Of a stretch of DNA of 64,000 nucleotides, positions 18,222 through 63,774 are shown piece after piece. Source of the stretch: Escherichia phage vB_EcoM_TH18; the sequence record ON075799. One strand, 5' to 3'. How positions within the stretch are numbered: position 1 is the stretch's first letter; each line of letters opens with the position of its first letter. The position numbers and the translations under genes were made by a program. Under the pieces are notes generated by a model. It had not been told where the DNA came from. It searched no databases and was given only the letters and a program-made list of their open reading frames with translations.

Positions 18222-18230
18222 GGAGAAGAG

Positions 18231-21158
18231 ATGAAGATTACAAAATGGGGGGCTGGTGCATACTTTGAAGGTGAGAACCCAAAAGCATTCCGTCCTGAAC
18301 GAAAAAGTGGTGGTAAAGTGAATTATCAGAAAAAAGAAGAAGAAACCGTAGAGTCTGTCCTAGATAGCACAAGGATCCTGGCTGTCCCCCAAATGGATAT
18401 TAGTTTAGATGCAGCTAAGTACTTTAAGATCAGATCTGCAACAGATTTGAAAGACGGCACTACAGTAGTGGCAACATATCTTCCATATTATGACAAATAT
18501 GGGAAATTGACAGGGTACAAGAAACGAGACTGGTCTGTCCCAAAAGAAAAAAAAGGTCATTTCTCTGTTGTTGGCACAGTGAAGGCCTCCTCTCAATTTT
18601 TTGGGCAACATGAAGCCGCTATGGGATCTGGTAAAAAACAGATCTTTATTGTTGAGGGGGAGGGTGATGTAACGGCTGGCTGGCAAGCTGGGTTTGAGTA
18701 TATTAAATTTCTTCATAGTAATCCTAATACGTCACGTTCAGTACGTGAGTGGGCAAGTAATGCTTTAAAAGGCATCAAAGCCATTCAGGATGGCGAAGAG
18801 GTTTCTAATTGCCCGACATTACCTTTTATCGGGTTGAACTGTGGAACAGCCAATGCGGTGGATACATTTGCCCACAACGAAAAGTTTATCAGGGAATATG
18901 AAAAGATTGTCCTTGGTTTAGACAATGATGAAGCCACAGCAAGGGAAAAAGAACACAGAATTAAGAAAGGTAAGGAAGCCACAGATGATGTTGCTAGTTT
19001 TTTGTTGTCTGACAACATCTATGTTGCACGATACCCGAATGAACGCAATGACCCAAATGGTGTTAAAGATATCCGGGATATTTACAAAAAAGGTAAGTGG
19101 ATGGATATCTGGAACATGTTTGCTAAAGCGCAGGATAAATATGTTCCTGACAAATTGATTGGGTTGGAGAGAATATCTATTGAAAATCTCCGTAAAAAGA
19201 AAAAAGATGGCGTTCCGTTGCCTTGCTTTCCTCGTTTGTATGAACTAACAAGAGGCCCACGAACAGGAGAATTGTGGACACTGACAGGCCCATCTGGAGC
19301 TGGGAAATCAACTTTCTCAAGAAAGATTGAATACGCAATTATCGAGTACCTCCGTAACATGGATATTCCCCGACTAGACGGATGGAAAGAGAACGAGAAG
19401 ATTGCAATTATCCGTCTAGAGGAGGATGAAGAGGAGTCTGTAAACAGTCTATATGCTGAGGAGTTAAAAATTGACCCGAAAGCATTTGTTGCAGACCCAG
19501 AGCAATTTCTTACCGATGAGCAGCACTTAGCGATACACCAACGGTGGATTGCCGAAGATAAGGTTAAAATTTTTGACCACTTTGGTTCAATACCGACTGA
19601 CCAATTGCTACAAAAATTGAAACAGATGGTTTTCCTTGATGGGTGCAGATGGATTATCTTAGATCACTTGTCGATGGTAATATCAGGATTAAAATCTGAT
19701 AACGAGCGAAGAGATTTAGATAACATCATGACGGAATTGGCTGCCTTCTGCAAAAAATATGACGTGTTTATCCTCAGTATCAGCCATATGAAGCGTAAAG
19801 AGATACAGATTCCAAAAGATAAGGATGGTAATCTCTTACCATTTTGGTATCCTGTGCGGAAAGAGGATCTTCGTGGTTGTCTTAACGGTTATGTAGAGTT
19901 CCTTACACCAGAAGGTTGGGTGCAGTTAAAAGACTACACACCGGGACAAAAAGTGGCACAGTGGGCAGACGGGGAGATATCTTTTACTGACGATGTTGAG
20001 CACATTAGACTTGAATGTCGAGAGGATATGTATGCATTCCGCAATTCAAGTTTTGAGATGACTGTCTCTGGAGAGCATCGTGTTCTACTGGATGTGGGGG
20101 GTGAGAAACAAGTTCTCACTGCGGAAGAGATTGCTAAACTGGCAAAATACGCTAGTTTTAAAGAACGATCTTCTATTGTCAGACATTACAGTGCTGGCAA
20201 TTTCCAGACATCATTAACAGAATGGCAAATCCGCGCCATGGTGATGTTTGCCGCTGATGGATGCTATCACAGCAATGGTTTGTGTAAGATGGAATTAAGA
20301 AAAGAGAGGAAAATAGAAAGAGCAACTAAAATTCTTGACAAACTTGGCGTGCATTATTCTCACGCAGTAAATAAAAGAGGGAACACAACCTTCAGGACTA
20401 AGGCATTGACAGAGAAAAAACCTCTACATCTATGCCATAATTGGTTTATTGAACCAAGCCATACCCTCAAAATTCTACTGGATGAGGTGTTCTTGTGGGA
20501 CGGTAGCGATAAAGGTGATAAGGGAAGAGAGTTTACTTCTAAGTATCGAGAAGAGTGTGATGTTGTTCAACACGCTGCTCATGCGAATGGAATGAGCACA
20601 AAACTCTACTCACGAACAGTAAATGGTGTTACATACTACACATTAAGTGTGTATCGGGAAGGTTCTTGTAAAAATAAGACATCTTTACGATCTCTTAAAC
20701 TGGAGAGAGAGCCTTCATGGGATGGATATAAATACTGCTTCAAAGTACCATCCAGCTATTTTGTTGTTCGACAAAACGGTGTGGTGTTCGTCACAGGAAA
20801 TAGTGCAGCACTCGAGCAGTTATCATGGGTTGTATTAGGTGTTGAACCTGAAGAACTCCCTGATCGCTCTCGTGGGCGTATTCGTAGCGTTGTAATGAAA
20901 AACCGTCCACATAAAAAATTAGGTATAGCGGATACTCTGATTATGGATGATAATGGTCAGTTTTCTGATGCATCTGGTTGGGTGTGGGAAGATGGTATGT
21001 TTAAACTTAATGGGGAGGTAATGCTAAGACCTAAATCAATGATTCAAAGTCTGGAACTTGAAACACCTGTGGGGAAAATTGCTGTTTCTGTTCCTCAACA
21101 AGAACCTGCTGTTGTTATTGAGCAACCTGAAGATTTAGATAGCGATTCTCCATTTTGA
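18231..21158 (+). CDS. primase-helicase (T7 gp4-like; Toprim + DnaB-family helicase) containing an intein
   Basis: 'EGEGD'/'DND' Toprim-like, Walker A 'GPSGAGKST', Walker B 'IILDH', helicase motif H4 'DLRG/SAALEQ' interrupted by a 308-aa insert. Confidence 0.7.
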   Translation: MKITKWGAGAYFEGENPKAFRPERKSGGKVNYQKKEEETVESVLDSTRILAVPQMDISLDAAKYFKIRSATDLKDGTTVVATYLPYYDKYGKLTGYKKRDWSVPKEKKGHFSVVGTVKASSQFFGQHEAAMGSGKKQIFIVEGEGDVTAGWQAGFEYIKFLHSNPNTSRSVREWASNALKGIKAIQDGEEVSNCPTLPFIGLNCGTANAVDTFAHNEKFIREYEKIVLGLDNDEATAREKEHRIKKGKEATDDVASFLLSDNIYVARYPNERNDPNGVKDIRDIYKKGKWMDIWNMFAKAQDKYVPDKLIGLERISIENLRKKKKDGVPLPCFPRLYELTRGPRTGELWTLTGPSGAGKSTFSRKIEYAIIEYLRNMDIPRLDGWKENEKIAIIRLEEDEEESVNSLYAEELKIDPKAFVADPEQFLTDEQHLAIHQRWIAEDKVKIFDHFGSIPTDQLLQKLKQMVFLDGCRWIILDHLSMVISGLKSDNERRDLDNIMTELAAFCKKYDVFILSISHMKRKEIQIPKDKDGNLLPFWYPVRKEDLRGCLNGYVEFLTPEGWVQLKDYTPGQKVAQWADGEISFTDDVEHIRLECREDMYAFRNSSFEMTVSGEHRVLLDVGGEKQVLTAEEIAKLAKYASFKERSSIVRHYSAGNFQTSLTEWQIRAMVMFAADGCYHSNGLCKMELRKERKIERATKILDKLGVHYSHAVNKRGNTTFRTKALTEKKPLHLCHNWFIEPSHTLKILLDEVFLWDGSDKGDKGREFTSKYREECDVVQHAAHANGMSTKLYSRTVNGVTYYTLSVYREGSCKNKTSLRSLKLEREPSWDGYKYCFKVPSSYFVVRQNGVVFVTGNSAALEQLSWVVLGVEPEELPDRSRGRIRSVVMKNRPHKKLGIADTLIMDDNGQFSDASGWVWEDGMFKLNGEVMLRPKSMIQSLELETPVGKIAVSVPQQEPAVVIEQPEDLDSDSPF
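19878..20801 (+). mobile_element. intein (308 aa) in helicase motif H4
   Basis: begins Cys 'CLNGYVEFLTPEGW', ends '...VVFVTGN' followed by Ser; flanks rejoin to 'DLRG-SAALEQ' (cf. DnaB 'DLRESGSIEQ'). Confidence 0.6.
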
Positions 21159-21256: not shown

Positions 21257-21353
21257 AGAAACATATGTCAAAAATAGGCAGTTTTCCACATAATCTATAA
21301 CCAACTAAGAGATGGGCGACGATACAGTCAAGCCCATCTTGAATAGGAGGAGT

Positions 21354-23390
21354 ATGAAAGGACTTTTTTTAGCCGATACAGAGGCTGATGGATTATTAGA
21401 AGAGGCAACTAAATATCACTGCACACTTTTTAAAGAATATGCTGTAAATAACTGGGTGTTGTTTCTCGATCCTGCTCACAAGGAATATCAGAGTGCAGTT
21501 AATTTTGCACGCAGCAAGGAAGGTGTTAATTTACGAATCCTTTCTTATGATGATTTTTACTCTTGGTTACAGACCGAACCAAGAGGGATAGCAATACATA
21601 ACCTGTTCGGCTATGACTTACGCCTGTGGAAAAAACTTTCTGGGATTGAATATGATATGTTCAAAGACCCAAAATGCATGGGGACGATAGGTAATAAACA
21701 GGTAAATCTTTACGACACTCTTTCAATGAGTCGTGTTCTTTACCCAGACCGCCCATTGCCTAATGGCTGCCCAGACTCTGTATTGAACCCTGTAACAGGA
21801 AAACGTGACAGGGTTGGGCCACACGGCTTATTGGCATGGGGTTATCGTGTAGCAAACAAGAAAGTGCAGATTGATGATTGGCGTAATCAGCCATTGTGGG
21901 AATATGTAAACCGTGTATGGGAAGACGTTATCATTAACGAACTTGTGTGGAAAGCTCTTATTGATGAGTCAAATGGTACGCGATGGCCTGATGACAAGCA
22001 GTTTATGTATACTGATAAACCTCACGGGATGCACCAGATTAATTGGAAAAATGCATTACGTAGGAGAATGCTCACAGACTATTTGATGATAGAGCAAGAA
22101 ATACAGGGTGTATACTTTAATCGGGAGGAGGCAGAAAAATTAAGAGATCGCATAGATAAGATGATGCGAGAAATTGAAGAAGAGGTAGAACCACTTCTTC
22201 CAAAAAAAGAGATGACGAAATCCCAACAACCAAAATTCCCAGCTAACCCTTTTGACACAGCGGGCAATATATCTCATCATGGGTGGAATTGGTTGGAATA
22301 TAAACTTGGCTATCCTGTTAACAGAGAAGCTCTGGAGTTCAAGGCTCCACCAAAAACAGCCTTTAAGAGTAACGGGGATGTAAGTGCAGCAGGGGAGAGA
22401 TATTGCATCCAGAATGGCATTGAAGATCCGGCTTTATACGGTGATTTCATTCGTTCCCAGCGAACCAAAGAGAACACACTCGAACCTTTACCGCCAGATC
22501 TTCTAGAGAAGGCTAAAGAAGACCTTCGAAATAGAAAAATGCCAGATTTAATGGTTCCAATGAAAATCTCTAATCAAGATGATATTAAAAAATATTTGAT
22601 CAAAGATGCTGGTTGGAAACCTACACTGTGGCGTGTAAAAGATGTTACTAAGGATCAATTTAAAAAGGCCCGTGAAGATTCTGAAATCGATGTACTAGTT
22701 AAGAAGTACATAGAAGAGTTGGCAGAATCTGAATATAAATCTCTTATTCTTGAATACCTTAATGATTCAGATGAGAAATTCAACATTTCAGAACGTAAGT
22801 TTGACCATCGCCATGCATCTGAAAGGGGTTATTCAGAGATATTTAAGAAATTTCGGCGCAAGGCACGCCAGTTACCGACATCTCCTCAACTAAAAGATAA
22901 TTTTGGGCATCTGTGCCCAAATCTGGAGAAAATTGATGTGCATATGGCAAAACAGATTGTTAAGTGGCTATCACTTCGTAACAGGCGATCTGTTTTAGAC
23001 CCAATGGATGAGGATAAGACGGATACAGGGTTATTAAATCACCCTCGTTTAGACATTGACGGAAAACTCCCAGCACGTTTTTCTGGAATCACTAACACGG
23101 GCAGGTGCAAGCATACTGTTTGCGCAAACATGCCCAAGCCTGATCCGAAGGTCTTGTTGGGAAAAGAAATGCGGGGTCTTTGGACAGTCCCTGAAGGCTA
23201 CTACCTGATGGGTTGTGATGGATCTAACTTAGAAGGTATGATTGCCGCAGCAGGAGCTTTTGAGTTTGATGGCGGTGAATATTTACGTATCATGATGGAA
23301 GAGGATGCCCATGAACGAAATGCAAGAGCATACACAATAGCCGCAGGAAAGGAGGTAACACGCTCTGGAGGAAAGGGGATTACGTATGGT
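21354..23390 (+). CDS. DNA polymerase (family A, T7 gp5-like) exon 1: 3'-5' exonuclease + polymerase motifs A and first half of B
   Basis: N-term 'MKGLFLADTEADGLLEEATKYHC' like T7 gp5 'DIEANALLESVTKFHC'; motif A 'CDGSNLE'; ends '...RSGGKGITYG' then stops in all frames; ATG 21354 with AGGAGG (ORF-track start 21312 less likely). Confidence 0.7.
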
Positions 23391-24124
23391 TAATGATAGC
23401 CCCCTTACAAAGTAATTTGTAAGGCGCACCCATTGAATTGCTGGGAAGTCTGACCGAGTTATGTCGAAGATAATCAGCAGGTAAGCGAATGCTTCCCTCT
23501 TACAAAAGGAGGGAGAATATGAGTACATTTTGTTGTATAATCTGCGGTGAGCAATGTGTTAAAACTGGTAAAAATCAAAAAGTATGTCTCTCTGAAGGCT
23601 GTAAAAGAGAATATCCAAAGATAAAAACCAGAGAATATAGACGCAGAAAGGCCGAAAAAGAAAATAGGCTTGATAGAGTTGGCATAGGAAAAGGTGGTGG
23701 GCAACCTTGTGGAAAATTGTCCAAATTTTATAAAAATGGTATATCGATGTTTCGTAAGTTATCCCCTGTCATAAAGGAACAGAGAAGATACTGTAATAGA
23801 TGTAATAAAGATCTTCTTTATGCAGGTAAGGATGAATGGTGCGTTCATCATATTGACCATGACAGGACGAATAACGAAATAAGTAATTTTGAATTACTTT
23901 GTAAAAAATGCCATCAAATAGAACATAAATGTTGGGAAGCATTCGAAACTTCAACGACTAGCCGAAAGGCGTAGGGCCAAGCGGTGAGGGAAACCTCCAG
24001 TCTTTTAGACTGCCGAAGCGGTGGGCATCCTGAAAAGGATGAAGATATAGTCTGATCTGCATAGAAATATGTAGCAGTTCCTAAGAGGACGGGCATGGTG
24101 TAGCGAGCCATGTTGAACAATATG
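23391..24124 (+). mobile_element. group I intron 1 (with HNH ORF)
   Basis: splits motif B ('...ITYG | IMYGAQAPKIA'); upstream exon ends in T, insert ends in G; shares 'AATTGC-GGGAA' and 'GATATAGTCTGA' elements with intron 2. Confidence 0.55.
23519..23974 (+). CDS. HNH homing endonuclease (intron-encoded)
   Basis: 'CVHHIDHDRTNNEISNFELLCKKCHQIEH' HNH motif with zinc-binding Cys pairs; RBS AAGGAGGG. Confidence 0.65.
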   Translation: MSTFCCIICGEQCVKTGKNQKVCLSEGCKREYPKIKTREYRRRKAEKENRLDRVGIGKGGGQPCGKLSKFYKNGISMFRKLSPVIKEQRRYCNRCNKDLLYAGKDEWCVHHIDHDRTNNEISNFELLCKKCHQIEHKCWEAFETSTTSRKA

Positions 24125-24457
24125 ATCATGTATGGAGCACAGGCTCCTAAGATAGCCGCAATGCTGGGTATCCCCCTTAATAGAGCACAGGCTGTAATAG
24201 ATGCATTCTGGGATAGTAACTTCGGGTTGAAAATGCGTAGGGAGCGGTTGGAAAAATTCTGGGAGGCAAATGGGAGACGCTATATTCCAGGCATGGACGG
24301 GCGTAAAATTTGGACTCGTTCTAAACATTCTCTGCTGAATGCTTACCAACAAAACGGTGGCGCTTCATTGTTTGACCTCATGGGAGTCCTGTTCCATTGG
24401 GAATTGGTAAAACGGGGATGGTACGACCAAGGTGTCAGGAGGGTTATCTATTACCAT
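24125..24457 (+). CDS. DNA polymerase exon 2 (rest of motif B to start of motif C)
   Basis: 'IMYGAQAPKIAAMLGI...RVIYYH' ; ends exactly before 'DE' of motif C. Confidence 0.6.
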
Positions 24458-24774
24458 AAACAATATTGTGGCTTCATGCAGTAATGCATGTCGAAAACCT
24501 CTCTAATTGACGGGAAAGCTAAGTTGATTCTTATAATTTATTGTGTTATAAGGACAATATGCCAATCCGCAGCGAAGCATCCCTACGGGATGAACGTTCA
24601 ACGACTATCGAAAGCACACTAGTAATGTGTAAGTGAGTAGAGTAGGCCAGCAAGTGCGGTCCAAACGGGAGGAACCCTTGAAAAAGGGTTATGATATAGT
24701 CTGACCCACAGGAGAAATCTTGTGGCTATGCACGTAACGGTGCGGGGGAGAGTAGCGAACTCCTTGAACTGGTG
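24458..24774 (+). mobile_element. group I intron 2 (ORF-less)
   Basis: splits motif C 'YYH | DEIQV'; ends in G; conserved elements shared with intron 1. Confidence 0.5.
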
Positions 24775-26728: not shown

Positions 26729-27034
26729 ATGAAAAAATTTACAAAAGAGCAGCTACTTAAGCATGTTCGCTCTAATGTTGACCATCTGGAAGACCTCCAA
26801 CAGCGTGTTGGTGAGGCTGGAGATGAGTATAAGAAGATTTTTGATATGGTATCTCTTGATTTGGAGATTGCTAAGATCGCATTAAATGCATTAGAAGCAA
26901 AACCGATTGGTGCTTTCCATATCACAAAGCAGCAAGTCGATGGTACAAGCGACTATATCAAAGATGGAGAATGGCCCATTGATAACGGAACAATTGAAGT
27001 ATACACTTCACCACTTGCTTTTACAGCGTGTTAA
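26729..27034 (+). CDS. hypothetical protein (paralog family 'IAL.ALEAKP')
   Basis: shares 'LEIAKIALNALEAKPIG' motif with 27405..27938. Confidence 0.5.
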   Translation: MKKFTKEQLLKHVRSNVDHLEDLQQRVGEAGDEYKKIFDMVSLDLEIAKIALNALEAKPIGAFHITKQQVDGTSDYIKDGEWPIDNGTIEVYTSPLAFTAC

Positions 27035-27404: not shown

Positions 27405-27938
27405 ATGAGCATTCTTACTAAAGAGAGATTGTTGACAATCAAGCAGTGGCGCGAAACATACGGACTTGGTAGTAACGTTGTACTGCCAGCAGAAGAGGCG
27501 CAAGAACTGGCACGAATTGCTCTGGCATCGCTGGAAGCGAAACCTGTTGCATGGACTGATGAGGAACTGCGTGATGTTAAGCAGTATGGTTTCGGTGAGA
27601 TATTTCAGTGTCCGCCAGATAAATATGCGGACCCGCGTCGTGTAATCTCGCTGTATCGCGAGCCGCCAACACTTACAGTGCCGAAAGTGGAACCGATAGT
27701 AGTAAACGACGACATGGCATACGCATTCCATCATGCACTGTCAGATTCATCGCTAGGCGCTGATGAGGTAGAGGAAATTAAAACTGGGTTGCGTGCAGCC
27801 TTTGCCAACGTCACCACCCAGCCACCATTGATAGTGCCTGATGAAATCGAGCCAGACGATAGCAATACGTTTGATTATGTTGATGGCTGGAACGCCTGTC
27901 GCGCTGCCATGCTCAAAAAGAAGGGGATGAATCAATGA
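27405..27938 (+). CDS. hypothetical protein, GC-richer host-like codon usage (paralog family 'IAL.ALEAKP')
   Basis: 'ARIALASLEAKPVAW' motif; frequent CTG/GCG/CGC codons unlike flanking genes. Confidence 0.5.
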   Translation: MSILTKERLLTIKQWRETYGLGSNVVLPAEEAQELARIALASLEAKPVAWTDEELRDVKQYGFGEIFQCPPDKYADPRRVISLYREPPTLTVPKVEPIVVNDDMAYAFHHALSDSSLGADEVEEIKTGLRAAFANVTTQPPLIVPDEIEPDDSNTFDYVDGWNACRAAMLKKKGMNQ

Positions 27939-28020: not shown

Positions 28021-28218
28021 ATGATAAAAGAACAGCCAGAAAATGATACTCAAAAATCACGTTTTCAGCAGTGGTTGGAACAACAACATGATCAGATTGA
28101 TGTGGATTGTGGTTGTGTTTCTATTGAAACATTCATGTATTGGTTACAAGTGGCGTATGAGGCAGGAGGAGATTTAAATGAACAATGGTTATCAACCTGT
28201 CATCTCGGAAATGGCTAA
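28021..28218 (+). CDS. hypothetical protein
   Basis: ATG 28021 with RBS GGGGGTGA. Confidence 0.45.
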   Translation: MIKEQPENDTQKSRFQQWLEQQHDQIDVDCGCVSIETFMYWLQVAYEAGGDLNEQWLSTCHLGNG

Positions 28219-28584
28219 TGTTTCTCTTCCACCTTCGTCACCAAGCCTTAAAGCAGCAACCCAACAACCAGTTGCTTGGCGGTATCGCTACGTGAAAAAA
28301 AAAGCGTTACGGACTCTCAGGGGGAGCCGTGGGTTGGTGACTGGAAATATGTACCGACAAAAGAAGATTGTAACGACAGACCAAACTACGAAATTCAGGC
28401 GTTATACACCACACCTGTAACCTTAGAAGGACTGGTTAAAGCAGTGCGCTTTTATGAACAGGTAAAGCGCGAGAATCCACCAGTCGAAACAGGAGCATGG
28501 AAAGACGCTGTTGACTGGGTGCTCAAAGAGGCATATAATGCAGTCAATAAAACAACACAGGACTTATCAAATTATGAAAATTGA
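28178..28584 (+). CDS. hypothetical protein requiring a -1 frameshift or slippage at an A9 tract (28295-28303), or frameshifted pseudogene
   Basis: Upstream frame 'MNNGYQ...PVAWRYRYVKKK' (RBS GGAGGA) continues sensibly only in the -1 frame 'SVTDSQGEPWVGDWKY...'; downstream ORF's own start is TTG without RBS. Confidence 0.45.
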
Positions 28585-41487: not shown

Positions 41488-42981
41488 TTAAAGAACTTGC
41501 TGGAAAGTTATGTCATTTAACTCCACAGCGAAAACTTCTGTCATAGTAGCAACAATATCGTTATTAGTATACGTACTGTCTGGCTCACCTTTGTTTTTGA
41601 CATCTACAAAAAGTTGAGTAAATCTACCTGATGAGATGGAAGACCCTACAGCAGAAACAAGTTGGATATTGTATAATGTATCTGCAATACTAAGTGGATC
41701 AACAACAGCTTTAAGGGAATCCCTGATCGTGTTCTGTTCTGTAAGGGATAGTAATTTACCTTTATACCTGACACGAATTTCAAGTTGCCTTACTTTTGCC
41801 TTGCTATGATAAATTCTTTCTACTTGGTCATCCTCTGTAGTCACATCATAGAATACATCCCCATAAGTGGCATTAGAGAGTGCTATAGTATTATAAAGCG
41901 CCTTACTAATATCTTCTGTAGCTCCACCATAAACTACTGTCTCAAACTTATACGCTGGGACACCGTACTCGTTTGTCACACCAGTATTGTTGGAGAAAAT
42001 TTTAACCTTACTTACACCCGGCACATTTAAAACAGCAGAAACAATCGCAGGTCGTGTTGCGGCAGCGCCTGCTGATGTAGTGTTTGAAGCCCTCAACTTA
42101 TATTCGGTATCCGTCTCAACATCTGTACCATCACTAAATGCTTCCCTGTTCGTCAAGCTAACAAAACCACTTGGTGTTGGGCTTATGTTGGTAACTGTCT
42201 CTGCTTCTCTAGATATCTCCCCAGCTTCAACAGCGATAACATCCATGGTTATTGTTCTTTGACCAAGTAGAGGTGATGTTCTAAAGTCCACAGGGGCATT
42301 AAGACCAATCATTTTCTTATTTTGATCATAACCTATAAACATACTTCCTGAAGAAGATTCGATGAAGATCTTATCTTCGTTCAGATAAGTTGTATTATCG
42401 ACTATAAACTCTTTCATAGCCATCATAAAAGAGTTTAATTCGGTGCTGTTTGGGGTTTTGTTTTTCAGAGATAGGTTCAGTGTCTTTGTTGTCCCATCAT
42501 TCTGGTTAACTATCTGAATGATGTAGTTACCAAGAACCCAATCTTGATTAGTTATCTGCTGCGCTATGATATTACCAGCAACGGCGGTATCTTCTGTTAA
42601 CACAAAATTTCCACCGTCAATACTGTATGTTGCGGCATCATAAATCATATTATACGGCACTGTGTTATTAATTACCATTTGAACAGTACCGGACCCTTTG
42701 GTTTTTCCTCTACGGAATATCCCACGACGACCAAGAATCTCGTCAAGATATATACCTTCTGCCCCTGCTAGTGTTTGTGCTGCATAAATAGATGCAGCCA
42801 AAAGAATTAATTGATATTCCCTTTCGTTGAAAATAGTAGTGATCTTATCAACAACGGAGTTAGTTTGGGTGTTAAAGTTTTCACCAAAAGCTCTAATAAG
42901 GGATTGCTTAGTATCTGTTATCAAGTCATCAAGGGACGGAATTGAAAAACCGTAGTCATTTAATCCAAATTGAGCAGCCAC
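41488..42981 (-). CDS. baseplate J-like protein
   Basis: 497 aa; GTG start with RBS GAGGAGG; position and size typical of gpJ/gp6-like wedge. Confidence 0.5.
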   Translation of the reverse strand: MAAQFGLNDYGFSIPSLDDLITDTKQSLIRAFGENFNTQTNSVVDKITTIFNEREYQLILLAASIYAAQTLAGAEGIYLDEILGRRGIFRRGKTKGSGTVQMVINNTVPYNMIYDAATYSIDGGNFVLTEDTAVAGNIIAQQITNQDWVLGNYIIQIVNQNDGTTKTLNLSLKNKTPNSTELNSFMMAMKEFIVDNTTYLNEDKIFIESSSGSMFIGYDQNKKMIGLNAPVDFRTSPLLGQRTITMDVIAVEAGEISREAETVTNISPTPSGFVSLTNREAFSDGTDVETDTEYKLRASNTTSAGAAATRPAIVSAVLNVPGVSKVKIFSNNTGVTNEYGVPAYKFETVVYGGATEDISKALYNTIALSNATYGDVFYDVTTEDDQVERIYHSKAKVRQLEIRVRYKGKLLSLTEQNTIRDSLKAVVDPLSIADTLYNIQLVSAVGSSISSGRFTQLFVDVKNKGEPDSTYTNNDIVATMTEVFAVELNDITFQQVL

Positions 42982-43063
42982 GATTATGCCTCCTCTTGTA
43001 AATTATTATAAGATGTGGTTATTTTACCACAATATGTCTTAATTATAAATAGTAAACACAAAT

Positions 43064-54756: not shown

Positions 54757-56547
54757 TTAGTTGTTTAGATAAGAATATTGCAAGAAATATTTAAATTCGT
54801 GGACTTGTTCGTCCGCTCCTGCAATAGGAATGATTCCATTAAGTCCTGATAAACCGTCTCCACGAAGAAGTTTAGTTATTACCTTCGTCTTAGGATCAAT
54901 GGTATGCGTAGGGACTGTTGGTAAAATAAGCCATACAGCCACTGTAGGTTGCCCTGATCCGACAACACTTGGATATTCTGCATAGATATCATAATCAAGA
55001 TACGTACCGTCTTCCGTACAAGGTATCTCTGTCAAACGAACATCCACCATAACATCTGTGCTGCCAGCAGGTGATCTGTTCAAATAAACTGTTGTTTTCA
55101 AATATATAGAAGACCCTGATCTTCCTGCTGCGTTTTTCGCTGAAGGTATGTCACTATAATTGAAAGAGAAATTCCCAGATGTTGCTGACAACCTCATAGT
55201 CGGCTGAGGAGAAAATGGGATATTAAAGCTCGCTTGTTGACTTGAATCATCTGTCATTGTAAAAGTTAGTGTAACCTGTTGTGCACTATCTATTTCTTTA
55301 ACAACAGCATTAACAGATTTTATTGTTTGTCCATCAGCACCTTTAGGAATACCTAAGTTAAGAACTTGTGAAGGGGAATCACCAGTTATTGATGCGGTCG
55401 CCTGTTGCCCACTTTGCAAAGAGGAAACTGTGCCGATAGATAGTGAATAGGTGGCAGAACTTCCTCCAAGGTCTACCCAAGAAACAGGGGTACTAGGGTC
55501 TGAGCCTCTAATTGTATACTTAACACTACCATCCGCGCCATAAAACAAGATCAACTTACTTGCCGTTGCTGAAGTTTTATCGTTTTGCCAATTATCTAGC
55601 CATATTATTTCAAATACGCCAGAGTTTGCTGGGGATTGTATATGGGCATAATACCTCCCCGGCATGGTCTGATTGGCAAGAGAAGCGATCTCATCAATGT
55701 TTAGCAACGATAAGGTGACACCATCACTCGCTGCCATACCGTACCCAAAACTTCCCGGTATGGCAGCAACACCAGCCGTGCGATCATGAATATTCGCTTG
55801 TTTGGCAGTTAACAAATCATACCACACTGCTGGGTCACTTAGATTGTTACCACGGATCGTATATTTCATATGACCGTCTTTACCAAAAAAGAGAACCAGC
55901 TTTGTTGCTGTCTGGCTTGTTTTGTCACCCCAGCCATTATCCAGCCAGATAATTTCTGTTATTCCTGTCATTTCCTCCGATTTTGTGGTGAAAGTATAAT
56001 ACCTTCCCGGATGTAAGTTATGGGCAGAACGCGCAACATCACCAAGACTGTTAGCAATAAGTGAAGTTCCTCCAGGATTTGTCATTCCGTAGCCGAAAGC
56101 GCCAGGCAAAGCTGCAACACCAGGTGCAGAATCATAAAGCCATTCTTGCACTTTGGTAGGAGCAACATACAACCCCTCTTCTCCTTCAGAGGTTATATTT
56201 GTTAAAGCGTTTCCTTCTTTAGGAGAAATCGGAATATTTATTTCAGGTGCTGTTACATATAATGCTCCTTGCTTCAACTCCAGCAGGTTATTTGCAGCAG
56301 GACTCACCTTAACAGCTAACCCATTATCTCCAGCTTGGAGAGCATTATTTTCATCTTCTGCCACCACAACAACACCTTTAAGAGGTGTAGCTTCTCCCCC
56401 ATCACCTAATAATTTAAGCGTGAGGGTATCTTCCGTATGCAACTTAAATTTATCTCCGAGTGTACCGCCAGAAGTATCTATACTATAACCGTTAGGTAAG
56501 ATAACTTCAGCATTTACAACTTTATCTTTATAATCCATAACTACCAC
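54757..56547 (-). CDS. fiber / receptor-binding-like protein with internal tandem domain duplication
   Basis: two ~110-aa repeats '...PG(A/S)FGYGM...PGRYY...EIIWLDN...KYTIRG...'. Confidence 0.5.
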   Translation of the reverse strand: MVVMDYKDKVVNAEVILPNGYSIDTSGGTLGDKFKLHTEDTLTLKLLGDGGEATPLKGVVVVAEDENNALQAGDNGLAVKVSPAANNLLELKQGALYVTAPEINIPISPKEGNALTNITSEGEEGLYVAPTKVQEWLYDSAPGVAALPGAFGYGMTNPGGTSLIANSLGDVARSAHNLHPGRYYTFTTKSEEMTGITEIIWLDNGWGDKTSQTATKLVLFFGKDGHMKYTIRGNNLSDPAVWYDLLTAKQANIHDRTAGVAAIPGSFGYGMAASDGVTLSLLNIDEIASLANQTMPGRYYAHIQSPANSGVFEIIWLDNWQNDKTSATASKLILFYGADGSVKYTIRGSDPSTPVSWVDLGGSSATYSLSIGTVSSLQSGQQATASITGDSPSQVLNLGIPKGADGQTIKSVNAVVKEIDSAQQVTLTFTMTDDSSQQASFNIPFSPQPTMRLSATSGNFSFNYSDIPSAKNAAGRSGSSIYLKTTVYLNRSPAGSTDVMVDVRLTEIPCTEDGTYLDYDIYAEYPSVVGSGQPTVAVWLILPTVPTHTIDPKTKVITKLLRGDGLSGLNGIIPIAGADEQVHEFKYFLQYSYLNN

Positions 56548-57113
56548 CCAACTTTTATCCTTTGTAATTCCTCAACTGTAGAGGCTGAAAGCACTTGGTC
56601 TTTCATTTCTCGTTGCTTAGTGTATATTGAATCATTCTTAGTTGCCAACTCGGAAGACATAGCTACAACAAAATTTTCAAATTCAGAACTACTCATCTCA
56701 ACAGGTTTGTTATCAGCATCTCTCCAAATCACAGCTTGTTTAGCCGGAGATGCTTTTTGTGCTAATAATACTGGATAAATACGACATAAGGTTGCATTAT
56801 CAACATCATACCTTGCACCATTATAAGAAACAATAGTCGTAGAGCTTTCTTCCAGTTTTCTCCACTCTTTTATTTCTGATAACATCTGTTGCTTTAATGC
56901 CTCGATAAATTGAGGGTTTGCTGTATACGGGGCAATCTCTCCAAAACTACCAGATTGTAAGGAATCCCAAACTGCTTTCCCAGTTTCACTATAGTCGTTG
57001 CTAGAAGCGGTGTATGGGAGATAATCAGAAAAACCATTAAAAAGTACCAGACAATCAACGTCACCATTAAGAAGATATTGTGGAGACTTAATATCTTTAA
57101 TATCCAGCATCAT
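56541..57113 (-). CDS. hypothetical protein (fiber-associated)
   Basis: 190 aa between two fiber genes. Confidence 0.4.
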   Translation of the reverse strand: MMLDIKDIKSPQYLLNGDVDCLVLFNGFSDYLPYTASSNDYSETGKAVWDSLQSGSFGEIAPYTANPQFIEALKQQMLSEIKEWRKLEESSTTIVSYNGARYDVDNATLCRIYPVLLAQKASPAKQAVIWRDADNKPVEMSSSEFENFVVAMSSELATKNDSIYTKQREMKDQVLSASTVEELQRIKVGW

Positions 57114-58360
57114 GCGATCCTCATAAAAAGACCAATATAACCTGTATCAGTACCATTTTTATTGCTTGGTGAACCGGATAAGGCTATAAACGTACCTCGC
57201 TGTGTTTCAGTACTGTGTGTAACAGAAACTGGCGTACTTTGAAATGCACCTGTTGTGGAAACCTTACTATAAAGAGTTATACAGCCTATGCGGGAACCTG
57301 GGATGGTCTGACCACGAACAAGTTTTCTGTTTGAATCAGTGTTCGAAGCGCCAAGATACACTCCCAACATCACCCCTCCAACATCAGGACTTCCCCATGT
57401 GTTTCCTACGGTTGATTGTAAATAGGAGAATTGTCCTTTTATATTTACCCAATCACCATCAGCAAAACTGGTTAGTAAGCGATAATAATACAATTCACCA
57501 TTTATGCCATAAAAATAGGCATGTTTACTATTTTTTGCTGCTTGCTCTGCATTCTCTGCTGGATATGGTGACAATACCTCAACCATACCTTTAAAAGTAA
57601 TCCCTTCAATAATACGTGTGTCACCTGAAGATAAATCTTGGTGAACAAGGTAACGACCAGGTTGTGCACTTCTCAACCAAGAAACCCATTCCTCTGGCCC
57701 ATTCTTCTCTTGAAAAACAACTTCTTTCTCGGCAGGGATAAACGCCCCAAAACCAAATGCCCCTGGTAAAGATACTACCCCATCTGTGGCATCATAGATA
57801 TCGTTTTGTACACCTTTTGTGGCAGCGGTTTTTATACCCAAGTAATCAAGAACCCCAGTTTTTGAATCTTGCCCTATGATAACTCGACCAACAGCAGAGA
57901 GATTTGCCAAAGCCATTACGTTTTTATCACTGAAATAAGCTAATTTATTTCCAGCAGTAATCAATCCTGACAAAGATGTCAGTATTTCACTCAACGGTTG
58001 TTTACCAGCAAGAGCGTTAGTGATTGTTGTTGCAAAGTTCGGGTCATCGCCTAATGCCTTCGCTAATTCATTGAGAGTATCTAATGTTTCAGGCGCTGAG
58101 TCAGCCAATTTTGCAATTAAACCCTTCACATATTCTACATTAGCTATTTCCTTTCCAATAGCATCATCCAACGGTGTTGGTGCTTGAGGGTTCCCTGTAA
58201 AGATAGGACTGTCTAAAGGAGCTTTGGATGCAATAAGATCCGTTATATCTTCTGGAATATTCCCACCACCCAACTCATCAAAATTTATTTTCTTTCCTGT
58301 TTTCTGGTCAACCAATGCACGACCATAAATTAAACCACCAACACCTGTTGTTGCTGTCAT
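57110..58360 (-). CDS. fiber protein
   Basis: 'DSPIFTGNPQAPTP' motif and a copy of the PGAFG...PGRY domain. Confidence 0.55.
   Translation of the reverse strand: MTATTGVGGLIYGRALVDQKTGKKINFDELGGGNIPEDITDLIASKAPLDSPIFTGNPQAPTPLDDAIGKEIANVEYVKGLIAKLADSAPETLDTLNELAKALGDDPNFATTITNALAGKQPLSEILTSLSGLITAGNKLAYFSDKNVMALANLSAVGRVIIGQDSKTGVLDYLGIKTAATKGVQNDIYDATDGVVSLPGAFGFGAFIPAEKEVVFQEKNGPEEWVSWLRSAQPGRYLVHQDLSSGDTRIIEGITFKGMVEVLSPYPAENAEQAAKNSKHAYFYGINGELYYYRLLTSFADGDWVNIKGQFSYLQSTVGNTWGSPDVGGVMLGVYLGASNTDSNRKLVRGQTIPGSRIGCITLYSKVSTTGAFQSTPVSVTHSTETQRGTFIALSGSPSNKNGTDTGYIGLFMRIA
58173..58213. repeat. 41-bp exact DNA repeat (copy 2) shared with 35514..35554
   Basis: identical 41-mer inside second fiber gene. 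Confidence 0.8.
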
Positions 58361-58389
58361 TGCTTAACTCCTTGAAAAAAAAAAACATT

Positions 58390-58899
58390 TTATGATGCTT
58401 CTAATTCAGATTTAAGATCAGCAATCATCTTTTCAAAGGATTTGTTTTTAGTTAGTGTAACACCTTTAGAAAGTGCAAACTCAACTAATCTATCTTTACT
58501 ACCTTTTTTATCAGCTTCATCATTCAGAGACATTGCTTCCTCTAAAATCAGATCAATAGATAGATTTTCTTTATCAGCCTTTTTATCTTGCACTTCTACA
58601 ATCTTGGCATCAACTACCTTACCCAAGTTTTTCGGACTAGGGATATCTTTGTTGAAGAACACGATATAAGATCCCATACGAATAGTAGAGTGCTGTGCAT
58701 CAACATCTAAACCAGACAGCTCTGCAAGAGCAGTGAAAAACTCAACAGTGTTTCTGAATGCTTTGTGTTGTGTTCCCACACATAAACCGTTCAAAGGTAG
58801 TCTTGCTGAGACCGCTGCATTTAATTGCGGGGCGTATGCACCAAAAAACTTAAATAATTCCACCTTATTAGGGAAAATACGATAATTTTGATTCGCCAT
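58390..58899 (-). CDS. hypothetical protein
   Basis: 169-aa ORF downstream of capsid gene. Confidence 0.45.
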   Translation of the reverse strand: MANQNYRIFPNKVELFKFFGAYAPQLNAAVSARLPLNGLCVGTQHKAFRNTVEFFTALAELSGLDVDAQHSTIRMGSYIVFFNKDIPSPKNLGKVVDAKIVEVQDKKADKENLSIDLILEEAMSLNDEADKKGSKDRLVEFALSKGVTLTKNKSFEKMIADLKSELEAS

Positions 58900-58980
58900 A
58901 AAATCTCCTTTTATTCCTTAGTAAAAACCACTTCACACCACAGGATAAGCGGCTATTATTAAGGCCGGAATGTGAAAAAA

Positions 58981-59004
58981 GGGGAGGTGATAATTCACCT
59001 CCCC
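58981..59004 (-). terminator. strong intrinsic terminator after major capsid gene
   Basis: 10-bp stem GGGGAGGTGA-TAAT-TCACCTCCCC followed by T6 on minus strand. Confidence 0.65.
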
Positions 59005-59030
59005 TCATTAGAGGTAGCATTTAAGCTATC

Positions 59031-60044
59031 TTATTCGAAAGTACCAGTAGAACGTACAACCAGTTCAGGACGGGTGTTAACCGTCAAGAAGGAAGTTTCA
59101 GATTCAACTTTCTCTTCACGCAGATATGCAGAAGATTTGTACCACAGATACAGTTCTTCAGCTACAGTGTTTGCTTCACGAGCATCATCTGCCGGAGCAT
59201 AATGGATCTGGAACATATCATCAATACCTTGCGGCAGGATGTATGCTTCACCATCTGGGATATATCCAGAGATGTCTTCAATGTAGGTTACGTTCTTGTG
59301 AACAAACATACGGTTGTTGGCATTCTCAGAACCCATACCCAGACGACGACGCAGCGGCTCTTGGGTAGAAGAATAATACTGGTATGCATTCATGATCAGC
59401 GGATGGGCGATCAGAGCAGAGAACCATTTACGAGAAGCCAGAACAATGATATTGTAGTTATTACCGTTATCACCTGCATTGTCGATGATGTATGCGCGAG
59501 CGTCTTTCTCAATCAGGTCAGACGGGTCAACCGCAACATCTGTGAAGTTGATATTGGCAGTGTGCTGGGTAACTCCCCACTCAGTAAAGTAGTTGTACTG
59601 TGCGGTAGGATCTTGTGGAGACCATGATTTACCCATGATTGCCTGAACCATTGCTTTTTCTTTCAGTTGTTCATGAGAAACGCGAATACGCTTAACTACG
59701 CGAGCAACTACGTCTTCAACAGTTCTAGGAGCGTCCGTAGTGAAGTATTTACGGAAGTTCTGAACATCTGCCGCAGTGATCTGACGATCCAGAGGGAAGA
59801 ACGGAATGTTGAAGTTCTTGATTTGGGCTTTTTCACTACCAACATAGTTACGTTCTCCACCACGACGACGTGCAGGAATATCCGCAACAATTTCGTCAAC
59901 ACGCTCAACACGAGCAATTGTGGTTTCACCATGATAAGCGGTGAACAGATCCATGTTGGTAATCAGGCGATACTGACGTGGAACAAGTTCCAGTGCTGCG
60001 CCAAGGTTTACGATTTGAAAGTCGTTAGTCTGTACTGCTGCCAT
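59031..60044 (-). CDS. major capsid protein (lambda gpE-like head module)
   Basis: 337 aa, preceded by decoration/scaffold-like genes, followed by strong terminator. Confidence 0.5.
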   Translation of the reverse strand: MAAVQTNDFQIVNLGAALELVPRQYRLITNMDLFTAYHGETTIARVERVDEIVADIPARRRGGERNYVGSEKAQIKNFNIPFFPLDRQITAADVQNFRKYFTTDAPRTVEDVVARVVKRIRVSHEQLKEKAMVQAIMGKSWSPQDPTAQYNYFTEWGVTQHTANINFTDVAVDPSDLIEKDARAYIIDNAGDNGNNYNIIVLASRKWFSALIAHPLIMNAYQYYSSTQEPLRRRLGMGSENANNRMFVHKNVTYIEDISGYIPDGEAYILPQGIDDMFQIHYAPADDAREANTVAEELYLWYKSSAYLREEKVESETSFLTVNTRPELVVRSTGTFE

Positions 60045-60067
60045 TTATAAATTCTCCTTGATGCAAA

Positions 60068-60490
60068 TTAGCTGATAGCCGTTACTTTAATATCTTCAGA
60101 ACCATCGTAATATTTATCGGTGATTTTCAGACCTCTTGCCTCAAGAGCTTTAATAGCAGTCTCGTCAATTCCAGTAGAACCATCAGAGAACACAATCTTG
60201 GACTTATTCAGAGTAAGGCCACGAACAGCAACAACAAAATTATATTTAGTTCCTACTTGGAACGGGGTAACAGGTTCGTATGCAGGTACAAGGTCATGGT
60301 CAACCAGAACACCATAAGCCTGAGCAGCATCACCAGATGCAGCCAGAGTACCGTCTTCTTTAACGATCATACCAGCTTTCATACCTGCTGCGTACTGAAT
60401 CTCCATTTCCTTGAAGCTATAGCCTTGGTCAGAAGAATCAACTTTACCCAGTACAATGTCAGAGTAGAAACCTTGAATTGGATTAGCCAT
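60068..60490 (-). CDS. head decoration-like protein
   Basis: 140 aa immediately upstream of capsid gene. Confidence 0.4.
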   Translation of the reverse strand: MANPIQGFYSDIVLGKVDSSDQGYSFKEMEIQYAAGMKAGMIVKEDGTLAASGDAAQAYGVLVDHDLVPAYEPVTPFQVGTKYNFVVAVRGLTLNKSKIVFSDGSTGIDETAIKALEARGLKITDKYYDGSEDIKVTAIS

Positions 60491-60508
60491 TTATTTAATC
60501 TCCTCGAA

Positions 60509-61510
60509 TTACGCGTTCATTGCAGCCGCTTCGCGTGCACGGGCGCGAGCTTTTTCTACGTTGGCTTTCAGAATATCTTCAGCAGACTTATTAATATCGT
60601 CTGTAGTAGCTTCAGCACCGGAACCATGTTCAGCAGTAGCAAATTCTTTTTTCACAGTTTCAACTTCTTCTTCAAGCTCTTTAATACGAGCTTGTGCTTT
60701 TTCCAGAATAGCCACCATGGGTGCATTAGCTTTCTCGATAATGAAATTAGCCAGTGCTTCATGATCAGAGTCAGCAGCGAAAGTGAAAGTTTTTGCTTTA
60801 TTCAGAGCTTCTTTCTTTTCCACTTCAACAGCAGCTTTGATAATTTCATCAGCTTTAGCAGCTTTGGCTTCAGCTTCTTCTAATTTTTTAACCAGATCCA
60901 GATATTCCTGAGATTTGGTCACATCAACATTATTAGACACTGAGGTCTCCTCTTTTTTCTTGGATTTATCAACTACAGGATTTGAACCTGCTTCTTTGAC
61001 GACCCCAGTCACCTGGAGATCTTTATCATCACCCTCTACGAAAGTGATTCCTAATTCTGCAACACCTTTTTCAAACAATTGTTGTAATTTTAACAACTCA
61101 TATTGCTTAGCGAGATCTAATTCTTTACCTTCGTGAGCAGCTTTAGCAATTGTTATTGCTTGCACGCGTTCTTCAAGAAATTCTTGATGTTGTGCATTCC
61201 ACGCCACAATAAATTCATCATCAGGGTTTTGCGCCGCATCGTATTCAAGTTCAGTTTCAAAACCAAGAAGTTTTGCCAGCAGTTCTGCATCATCATGCCA
61301 CATGTAGAAGAATCTACGCAGAAATTCTTCAAAGCTCATGGTAACAGTTACTTGCTGTAGGGCTTTGATAACGTCTTTAGTAAGCTGCTCTGGTTTAAGA
61401 TCAGACTTCATAAGAAGTGACACTGGTCTTAAATTAGCAGAATACCCTTGAAGCTCATGACACAGTGCAATACCCTTCTCCTTAATGGCTTTGGCCTTTA
61501 CAATTGTCAT
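60509..61510 (-). CDS. scaffolding protein
   Basis: 333 aa, Ala/Glu/Lys-rich coiled coil ('EEAEAKAAKADEIIKAAVEVEKKEA'). Confidence 0.5.
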   Translation of the reverse strand: MTIVKAKAIKEKGIALCHELQGYSANLRPVSLLMKSDLKPEQLTKDVIKALQQVTVTMSFEEFLRRFFYMWHDDAELLAKLLGFETELEYDAAQNPDDEFIVAWNAQHQEFLEERVQAITIAKAAHEGKELDLAKQYELLKLQQLFEKGVAELGITFVEGDDKDLQVTGVVKEAGSNPVVDKSKKKEETSVSNNVDVTKSQEYLDLVKKLEEAEAKAAKADEIIKAAVEVEKKEALNKAKTFTFAADSDHEALANFIIEKANAPMVAILEKAQARIKELEEEVETVKKEFATAEHGSGAEATTDDINKSAEDILKANVEKARARAREAAAMNA

Positions 61511-62196
61511 TCGTCCTCTTCCTCTGTTTCATCTAGATAACCCAGACATTCGATACCGAAATCAACATCTGTTATTTCTCCTGTTGCTGTGTCCACACGC
61601 CCAGAGCACTGGATGCTTAAACCACCAACAACATTTGCTTTTTTCAAATTCCACAAATCAGGATCATTATACTTAACCTTGGCTACCCATGTTCCTGCTT
61701 TAATTATCTGTTCCGTCCCAATGACCACAACATCCAGTTCTTCTTGAATCCAAGTTTTTTCAATAGTGAATGCATCAGTCTCGCTAAGATGGAATAAATT
61801 TTCTTTCACCAAACCAGCAGCGAGTGCCTTATCGTAGGATTCTTTTGCCTTTACTATCGTTTCAGGAGACATCCACTCTCCATGGGCATCCTTAGTATTT
61901 GGCTCATAAATAACCTCATAAGAGATCATTTGTTCCGCATCTTTTTGGATATTAACTACAGATGTTTCTTTATTAAGACTCTTTTTAATATTTAGAGATA
62001 AAACTCTCTCAGAAGCCTTTTCTACAGAGATTCCTGGAGAATGGCCTGAAGCAATCAGGCCATTAGCGATATTCAGTATCTTGCTCTTTTGAACAAGAGA
62101 CAGATCAGATACTGATGAAGGAAGGTCTTTAATGCTTTTAAATTTCATTATTTCCCCATTAACAGTTATTTTAACATCGTTCTTTTTCTTTTGCAA
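61507..62196 (-). CDS. putative prohead protease/head morphogenesis protein
   Basis: 229 aa between portal and scaffold; no catalytic motif confirmed. Confidence 0.35.
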   Translation of the reverse strand: MQKKKNDVKITVNGEIMKFKSIKDLPSSVSDLSLVQKSKILNIANGLIASGHSPGISVEKASERVLSLNIKKSLNKETSVVNIQKDAEQMISYEVIYEPNTKDAHGEWMSPETIVKAKESYDKALAAGLVKENLFHLSETDAFTIEKTWIQEELDVVVIGTEQIIKAGTWVAKVKYNDPDLWNLKKANVVGGLSIQCSGRVDTATGEITDVDFGIECLGYLDETEEEDE

Positions 62197-62217
62197 GTTA
62201 TTTCAGAAGGTTGGGTG

Positions 62218-63759
62218 TTAATTCTCTAAATTAGAAACAGAATTATCCCTCACTGTTGATATTTTTGATGTTCCGTTACCTGTTGACCCCGGAGTCATCC
62301 CATCCCCAGAACGACTTACATCCTGACCAAGAATTTGCAACAACTCCTCAAGATCCATATCTTCTGGGATTTCTTCGTCAAAACCACCAACCTCAAGAAT
62401 TTTATTAATAACTGTAGGTGTTTTAGGCAAATATCCAACAGCACCGATACGCTGAACAAATTTAGAGAATCCTTCCATATCAACTTCTTGAATAAGCCCA
62501 GGTTTTAATCTTGGCATATCTTCGTCAGATAATCTTATATCATTCAAAGCAAGAAGTTGGGGTATTAAGTTCTTATTGAACGCCTCGGTAATAATATCAA
62601 TATCTCTCTGGACAAAATGACCATGGATAGTTTGTTTTGATTCTGAAAGATTATAAGATCCCTGCCCGTCGTTACCTAAGTTAATAAACCCAGCACCAAA
62701 GCGATCAAGAATAGCCTTCTTACGAGAATTAACAAGCTCTTGAGTGCTGTATTGTTTACCTGCCCCATCTATCCCTTTGAGAGACATTTCATATTGTTTA
62801 CCACCTTGGTTATTGAGATCAGATGGTAAAATAAAGTAGGCTTGTTCTCCAGCATGTGCGTTAGCAGCATCTGCCATTAGTCCTTGCACCATAGCAGCTT
62901 CTGGTGATGTTGGGTCTATTGCTGCTTTATTAAGGATCTGGGAAGGTATTTTAAGTTCTATGATGCCACCAAGATCTTTAGATGCCCCAATAGTCTCCAA
63001 ATTTTCTATAAGGATCTTCTCTCGGAATGCCCTATAACAACCTACTAACGGTGATACCCCAGCCGGGTTGGATTCCGTACCTCCCAAACTCATTATCATC
63101 AACTTATTAACTGGAATAAAAACATCATCACCATTAGTTAATTTACGGATAATGCTTAAAGTGTCACCTAGCATTCCGTTTTGTAAATTAGAGAAAGCCA
63201 AACTGCTTTGGTTAATGCCCTTCAGCGTCTTGCCATCGGCATCAAATACCCAAGGCTTTGATCTGGAAAGACTGCACTGCGGCCTGAATGCAATTTTATC
63301 AATCGTAATATACCCAGCATACCTTGAAGTATCTGGCTCAGTACGATAAACTTTTTCAAATATCGAAAACCCATACTCATTGAACGTTGCTGCGCTTCTG
63401 GCTATATCACGCAGAGTTTGTTGATTAGCAAGATTCTTCAGTGCATACTCCACAAACTCAGCAGCTTTCTTAGATTTTCTGCTATCTCTGTTATACAAGA
63501 TTTTAAAATCATTGAATGCTTTGGTTACAAAGACATATTTTGTATCAAGGGCTGTGGAAACTGTGTGGTCTTGCTTCATGGCTTCAACAGTGGCGATGAA
63601 ATTAGGCCATCTCAACTCCTTAACTTTCATAATCTCTGATTCAGCCCTAAGTTGAGAAAGAGCACCAGAGCCTAACTCCCCAGTGCGAAGACGACTAACA
63701 GCAAGTCTCTCATTACCTGCTTTAGAAATCTCTTCTTGTTGTGCAAATCTTGTTGACAC
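62218..63759 (-). CDS. portal protein
   Basis: 513 aa, first gene of head module downstream of terminase fragment. Confidence 0.5.
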   Translation of the reverse strand: MSTRFAQQEEISKAGNERLAVSRLRTGELGSGALSQLRAESEIMKVKELRWPNFIATVEAMKQDHTVSTALDTKYVFVTKAFNDFKILYNRDSRKSKKAAEFVEYALKNLANQQTLRDIARSAATFNEYGFSIFEKVYRTEPDTSRYAGYITIDKIAFRPQCSLSRSKPWVFDADGKTLKGINQSSLAFSNLQNGMLGDTLSIIRKLTNGDDVFIPVNKLMIMSLGGTESNPAGVSPLVGCYRAFREKILIENLETIGASKDLGGIIELKIPSQILNKAAIDPTSPEAAMVQGLMADAANAHAGEQAYFILPSDLNNQGGKQYEMSLKGIDGAGKQYSTQELVNSRKKAILDRFGAGFINLGNDGQGSYNLSESKQTIHGHFVQRDIDIITEAFNKNLIPQLLALNDIRLSDEDMPRLKPGLIQEVDMEGFSKFVQRIGAVGYLPKTPTVINKILEVGGFDEEIPEDMDLEELLQILGQDVSRSGDGMTPGSTGNGTSKISTVRDNSVSNLEN

Positions 63760-63774
63760 GAATTATCCCCTCTG

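Follow-up and report, generated by a model that had tools for sequence, protein, structure and literature searches.

Organization of the locus

The window, by which we mean the entire stretch of 64,000 nucleotides analyzed here, carries on its plus strand a run of nine A residues (28295-28303, read directly from the sequence), which is the longest coding homopolymer in the window and the site at which a gene breaks frame. The true start of this gene is ATG 28178, preceded at a spacing of 7 nt by the Shine-Dalgarno sequence GGAGGA (plus strand, 28165-28170, likewise read directly), and the same start is used in the annotation of the Av-05 genome by the gene Av05_00121. The start overlaps the upstream gene (28021-28218) by 41 nt, and the same overlap is seen in Av-05. 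Frame 0 from this ATG reads MNNGYQ...PVAWRYRYVKKK, and its N-terminal 39 codons (plus strand, 28178-28294, MNNGYQ...PVAWRYRYV) include the start of a conserved protein core; it then enters the tract as ...WRYRYVKKK and continues as ALRTLRGSRGLVTGNMYRQKKIVTTDQTTKFRRYTPHL. The latter part is an out-of-frame tail (plus strand, 28304-28420, ALRTLRGSRG...TPHL, closed by TAA at 28418-28420), which would be translated by unshifted ribosomes. The resulting frame-0 product of 80 amino acids (aa) ends in 38 out-of-frame Arg/Thr-rich residues, with the conserved core being absent from it.

The C-terminal 93 codons are found in the -1 frame (plus strand, 28303-28584, SVTDSQGEPWVGDWKYVPTKEDCNDRP...SNYEN) and hold most of the conserved core of the phrog_660 family. 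This frame reads EKKSVTDSQGEPW... (in its context, ...EKKSVTDSQGEPWVGDWKY...) and terminates at TGA 28582-28584, its stop overlapping the start of the next gene at 28574. Its sole upstream start is TTG 28276, which lacks a Shine-Dalgarno sequence, and the depositors' annotation, which covers the -1 part alone, uses this TTG as the start of a 102-aa CDS without a ribosome-binding site (RBS) (peg.46, UDW09789.1; plus strand, 28276-28584). An earlier note on this DNA had described both an ATG-initiated frame that reads into the run as VKKK before losing sense, and a -1 continuation of 93 codons whose only upstream start is a TTG without an RBS; both descriptions are accurate.

Within the run a slippery heptamer, A_AAA_AAA (28297-28303), lies in phase with ATG 28178 and conforms to the X_XXY_YYZ pattern, and a hairpin of -12.1 kcal/mol, a by-product of the coding sequence, occurs directly 3' of the tract (plus strand, 28304-28335). 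The run per se is unsurprising for the composition of this DNA (four matches to the nine-mer from two sites, against 5.2 expected in shuffles). What is above chance is its position, which is exactly where a strongly conserved protein core switches frame.

The two halves as a single phrog_660-family gene

The reconstructed fusion protein, when used as a query, recovered 1,180 homologs, and all 48 of those that were aligned read PVAWRYRYVKKG(V/I)TDSQGEPWVGDWKY in a single frame across the junction. In these 48 homologs the segments flanking the tract (P31-Y38 and W52-P69) lie in one chain and vary little or not at all. The E. coli prophage homologs likewise show PVAWRYRYVKKG(I/V)TDSQGEPWVGDWKYVPTKEDCNDRP in one frame, and the equivalent locus of Av-05 is a single continuous gene of 128 aa, Av05_00121. 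In a profile match the fusion protein was aligned with phrog_660 in one stretch, junction included (residues 10-129, E = 4.2e-36). Comparison with Av-05 recovered 6 synonymous and 2 nonsynonymous changes for the upstream half in frame 0, and 11 synonymous and 5 nonsynonymous changes for the downstream half in the -1 frame, whereas the wrong frames gave 1-3 synonymous and 5-14 nonsynonymous changes, with each half being mostly synonymous only in its own frame. The conservation on both sides of the junction, together with this frame-specific divergence, implies that the break cuts through the conserved core. Both halves thus constitute one gene of the phrog_660 family (unknown function).

The alternative that these are two genuine small genes, namely the 80-aa ORF from ATG 28178 and the annotated 102-aa ORF from TTG 28276, can point to both ORFs being open and to the second having been annotated by the depositors. 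However, TTG 28276 has no RBS, coding-type conservation is absent from the tail of the 80-aa ORF, and the motif PVAWRYRYV, invariant or nearly so in all aligned homologs, is encoded before the break, in the other frame. No other instance of the 80-aa product as a called gene was found. As the aligned homologs cross the junction in one frame, and as the first residues of peg.46 (MAVSLREK) misread the conserved AWRYRYVK motif, the deposited TTG-start ORF is an artefact of the gene caller, and we regard the existence of two separate genes as hardly credible.

The fusion protein showed no match to any Pfam family or to any PDB sequence. The AlphaFold2 model of its closest intact homolog, which is of low confidence (mean pLDDT 52.7), displays a β-hairpin at WRYRYVKKGV followed by helices, such that the tract may encode the first predicted strand (residues 35-44).

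The linker motif LEAKPVAW or LEAKPIGA is common to this gene (28178-28584) and its neighbors at 26729-27034 and 27405-27938, and N- and C-terminal modules appear to have been exchanged at this linker. The 'EaA' gene at 27405-27938 has the N-terminal phrog_660 module (profile positions 3-102), the gene at 28178-28584 has the C-terminal module, and prophage homologs (e.g. P0016) combine both. Overall, the region resembles a mosaic in which ea-type modules, also found in lambdoid prophages, have been shuffled. Elsewhere in the window, the annotation of the DNA polymerase (about 21350-24480) is divided into pieces with ORFs between them, and HNH endonucleases are annotated at the equivalent place in Av-05; an HNH homing endonuclease likewise lies among the three pieces of the large terminase (about 63775 onward). 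These splits probably represent intron- or intein-type insertions, or insertions of free-standing homing endonucleases.

An intact sister allele

The 90% cluster containing the 102-aa product also includes a 135-aa protein (P0132), which corresponds residue for residue to the predicted fusion (...YVKKKSVTDSQ...). It is encoded by JZOQ01000142.1 (GCA_002972075.1), a contig of 79,833 bp from a draft assembly of E. coli, and the tract of this contig is A10. The tract aside, a single 2-nt substitution separates this contig from the window over 1,128 nt, and ~17 SNPs and one 3-nt in-frame indel do so over 20 kb (~99.9% identity). The presence of A10 in a near-identical sister implies that the gene in the window is one A short of intact. 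The earlier note had proposed a single gene that requires a -1 shift or an extra A at the run and had predicted the junction YVKKKSVTDSQ; the A10 allele encodes precisely this 135-aa fusion and this junction. The note had also taken A10 as the result that would count against its reading, and such a tract does exist, in the sister genome and not from resequencing of this phage itself. Since the sister allele is intact, the break points to an unstable homopolymer that has slipped by one base in the ordinary way, rather than to a programmed frameshift.

Authenticity of the A9 run

Five assemblies share the A9 allele, and the four that were aligned proved to be 100% identical. Positions 1-64000 of OK136180.1 (Escherichia phage 18-1-2; Avunavirus, Vequintavirinae; from the respiratory tract of a marmot in China) are the window, in the same coordinates. 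The genomes of 18-1-2, 19-1-2 and 24-2-1, separately deposited scaffolds that differ in their ends and orientations, share 100% identity throughout the window, A9 and an intergenic A11 run included. JZNW01000013.1 (GCA_002972255.1) also has A9 and is 100% identical over 16,974 nt, while the fifth A9-type record (UOX40053.1, 133,882 bp) is known only by its identical 102-aa product. A literature search found no publication for 18-1-2, 19-1-2, 24-2-1, JZNW or JZOQ.

We also audited the coding indels between the window and Av-05 (KM190144.1) over the 64 kb. A9 is the only such indel that leaves the window with the shorter ORF; elsewhere it is Av-05 that is split and the window that is intact (e.g. 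1,512 nt in the window versus 1,278 nt, and 2,934 versus 2,007 nt). Besides A9, the window has a single coding run of at least 8 nt, an A8 at 18547, which is in frame, and no other homopolymer-broken ORF was detected in the 64-kb window relative to Av-05. As the assembly is free of other homopolymer-broken genes, A9 probably reflects the true sequence rather than an error in the consensus.

The earlier note had listed a homopolymer sequencing error among its explanations. Under this proposal the phage would truly possess A10 with an intact 135-aa gene, one A having been lost in assembly or polishing. It gains some plausibility from the near-identical genome that carries A10, from the tract being the longest coding homopolymer in the window, and from the aligned A9 records being 100% identical to each other, so that they may not be independent determinations; indeed, the five assemblies may share a laboratory, platform or source material. 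However, the A9-type product occurs in five separately deposited assemblies, with A9 itself present in all four for which the DNA was read, and three of these concur on the A11 tract. Furthermore, the 64 kb show no additional homopolymer frame breaks, the window having the longer ORF at the other coding indels relative to Av-05. JZNW (A9) and JZOQ (A10) also differ by SNPs, as expected for a real strain difference, and frame-broken alleles at this tract are found in unrelated data sets with many member sequences. An error is hence possible but disfavored, and we consider a true A10 in this phage unlikely.

The audit and the comparison of assemblies also yielded observations on the genomes themselves. 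In Av-05, the genus type genome, several genes that are intact in the window are split by 1-nt indels, among them those for a baseplate component (window 41491-43002, versus the split Av05_0096/0097) and a primase/helicase (window 18222-21155, 2,934 nt, versus 2,007 nt in Av-05). The Av-05 reference genome thus probably contains homopolymer-type sequencing errors. The A11 run (window 58375-58385, T11 on the coding strand), on which all three marmot assemblies agree, occupies a short spacer between two minus-strand genes, immediately ahead of the RBS and start codon (ATG) of the tail-fibre gene, and coincides exactly with a break in synteny: window 55737-58383 corresponds to Av-05 44383-41740, and window 58378-64000 to Av-05 114107-119728. 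Either the arrangement in Av-05 or that in the scaffold is rearranged or misassembled at this point. Finally, JZOQ01000142.1 (80 kb) and JZNW01000013.1 (35 kb) are lytic-type Vequintavirinae contigs lying inside E. coli drafts, and one of them matches the marmot phage records at 100% identity. Possible reasons are a carrier state, contamination of the sequenced cultures or a common source of both sets of deposits.

Allele series and history of the tract

The ancestral DNA at this position is GTG AAA AAA GGC (G/A)TT, with an A6 run, as seen in 38 of 40 viral contigs and in a contig from Logan; this A6-GGC allele accounts for 40 loci in the allele series. An A7-GC allele (KKS), derived by a G-to-A change, is intact and in frame in three distinct contigs. 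The A8-GC allele (L025 and L063) is frame-broken, A9-GC is the allele of the window, and A10-GC (KKKS), the in-frame sister allele, is that of JZOQ. A separate prophage lineage (L069:1561 and L070:238) has a broken A8-GGC allele, with the same net shift as that of the window, and has a TAG in the restoring frame; its gene adjoins DUF7167 and hok genes. A search with the out-of-frame tail recovered this lineage in three clusters of 47, 15 and 6 members. Because a TAG was also acquired in the frame that would restore the protein, we interpret the A8-GGC lineage as a decaying pseudogene, and its occurrence in clusters of this size marks it as a widespread decayed allele. A search of 185,579 species-representative genomes revealed no allele of A7 or longer.

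The breaks in A8-GC, A9-GC and A8-GGC imply at least three independent frame-breaking events at the tract, and such repetition fits a hot spot of replication slippage in a dispensable gene. Tract length toggles the frame at close range: A9 (the window and JZNW) is set against A10 (JZOQ) at ~99.9% genome identity, and an in-frame A7 against an out-of-frame A8 in the prophage lineages.

Programmed recoding or phase variation

Programmed frameshifting and phase variation had both been raised in the earlier note. A functional tract of this kind would either sustain a fixed ratio of products, through programmed transcriptional slippage or -1 ribosomal frameshifting, or act as an on-off switch. Several features are compatible with this proposal. 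A9 has the length (at least about 9 A/T at a frame junction) used as the criterion for transcriptional slippage and reaches the slippage threshold of bacterial RNA polymerase, and A_AAA_AAA is slippery in frame 0 (PMC1088944, PMC5009743, PMC1851650). The -12.1 kcal/mol hairpin lies 3' of the tract, beginning 0-3 nt past the heptamer, close relatives toggle the frame (A9 versus A10, A7 versus A8), and tssM of Citrobacter rodentium offers a precedent for an interrupted poly-A gene that can be functional (PMC4256274).

However, the out-of-frame layout is not conserved: the JZOQ sister, Av-05, all 48 aligned homologs and 38 of the 40 viral contigs are single-frame. The search for the break across Av-05, the prophages, the 1,180 protein homologs and three DNA collections showed that it is not conserved in any aligned homolog, and the other broken alleles (A8) are few, scattered and in one case decayed; we accordingly rejected a programmed frameshift. 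No Shine-Dalgarno-like element was detected in the 35 nt before the tract. A dedicated stimulatory structure was also rejected, as the hairpin sequence is common to in-frame A6 homologs and the regional folding is ordinary, being no better than that of shuffles (z = -0.83). The 38-aa out-of-frame tail of the truncated product shows no sign of selection, since its wrong-frame divergence is mostly nonsynonymous. Likewise, the gain of a stop codon in another lineage broken at the tract speaks of decay and not of regulation, and tells against a switch that is being maintained. A length-variable homopolymer is supported in the weak sense of a polymorphism between strains (A9/A10 and A7/A8), with no sign of reversible, selected phase variation. 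In light of these observations we hold a functional tract, whether programmed or switching, to be improbable.

A particular form of this idea is that the tract serves as a working expression dial in a lytic phage, with out-of-frame alleles persisting because slippage by the host RNA polymerase provides a low but useful dose of the full-length phrog_660 protein, and the alleles toggling between states. If the dial were real, A7 and A10 would be the high-expression and A8 and A9 the low-expression states, reached via replication slippage, and the tract would constitute a phage-borne contingency locus on an accessory gene shared with lambdoid prophages. We rate this form as slightly less probable still.

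A proposed contraction of a hypermutable tract

We propose, as the probable explanation, a recent and non-programmed one-base contraction, from A10 to A9, of a hypermutable poly-A tract in a phrog_660 accessory gene. Starting from the ancestral GTG AAA AAA GGC, a G-to-A change and subsequent expansion would have generated the long poly-A tract in this lineage. Polymerase slippage during replication, which can add or remove bases, would then have shortened A10 to A9. Runs of 9A/9T are known to be prone to both transcriptional and replication slippage, and ORFs disrupted by them can be restored at the mRNA level (PMC1088944). The direction of the change is suggested by parsimony, and A9 could alternatively be an intermediate on the path from A7 to A10. 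That the identical A9 allele persists in five assemblies, of which one belongs to another set of deposits, might also indicate that the phage tolerates it or benefits from it.

The DNA-encoded product of the A9 strain would be the 80-aa truncated protein, and as this lacks the conserved core the gene would be an inactivated allele, at best a leaky one. The phage is presumably transcribed by E. coli RNA polymerase, which would be expected to slip on runs of ~9 A, slippage by this enzyme needing at least about 8 A (PMC6260861). In addition, A_AAA_AAA would permit -1 slippage of tRNA-Lys; in E. coli, -1 frameshifting occurs on C_AAA_AAA even when the site is unassisted (PMC1851650). An A11 run in tssM1 of Citrobacter rodentium results in ~20-25% slippage (PMC4256274). 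Given slippage by both the polymerase and tRNA-Lys, we infer that a minority of full-length 135-aa protein with the junction YVKKKSVTDSQ is likely to be made in the A9 strain, as an incidental and not an evolved outcome.

These results bear on annotation, as UDW09789.1 and its copies in 19-1-2, 24-2-1 and the 133.9-kb genome are truncated mis-calls of a frameshifted phrog_660 gene, and the 102-aa CDS would be better labeled a pseudogene or disrupted gene, the poly-A tract being mentioned in the annotation. More generally, the alleles A6, A7, A8, A9 and A10 form a small, clean natural series at one codon of a widespread prophage and phage accessory gene, in which a single G-to-A change is seen to seed a growing, unstable homopolymer. 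The near-isogenic A9 and A10 genomes also provide a natural substrate for measuring slippage by E. coli RNA polymerase or the ribosome in a phage.

Comparison with known systems

The locus is best explained as an ordinary homopolymer frameshift allele and represents no new recoding mechanism. It resembles contingency loci in that very close strains differ in the length of a homopolymer inside the gene and thereby in its frame. It differs from those loci in showing no sign of reversible switching within a population, of selected mutability or of a phenotype, and another lineage broken at the tract has decayed further. With the -1 programmed frameshifts of E. coli dnaX and the IS elements (A_AAA_AAG, with an upstream Shine-Dalgarno-like element and a downstream stem-loop) it shares a phased heptamer and a 3' hairpin. 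However, the heptamer here ends in A and not G, the Shine-Dalgarno-like element and phylogenetic conservation are both lacking, and the hairpin is spaced by 0-3 nt and is coding sequence of in-frame homologs, as against a spacing of about 5-6 nt in E. coli dnaX and the IS elements.

Comparable run lengths, in the active range as here, are found in the transcriptional slippage systems of Thermus thermophilus dnaX (A9), Shigella mxiE (T9) and Citrobacter rodentium tssM1 (A11; PMC4256274), and in mxiE and tssM1 the full-length product needs one extra A, as in our case. In all three of these the arrangement is fixed or conserved and the products have demonstrated roles, whereas the break described here is limited to a single clone, its sister reads in frame, and the out-of-frame tail of the short product is unconserved.

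The closest parallels are the restorable frameshifts at 9A/9T runs described by Baranov et al. in 2005 (PMC1088944), in which an ORF is likewise interrupted at a run of 9 A, and the endosymbiont poly(A) cases (cited in PMC5009743) are of the same kind. The present locus differs from the restorable cases in that it is a dispensable phage accessory gene, transcribed presumably by the E. coli RNA polymerase of the host. As in those cases, an intact sister ortholog is one A longer, and a single additional A in the mRNA would restore the frame.
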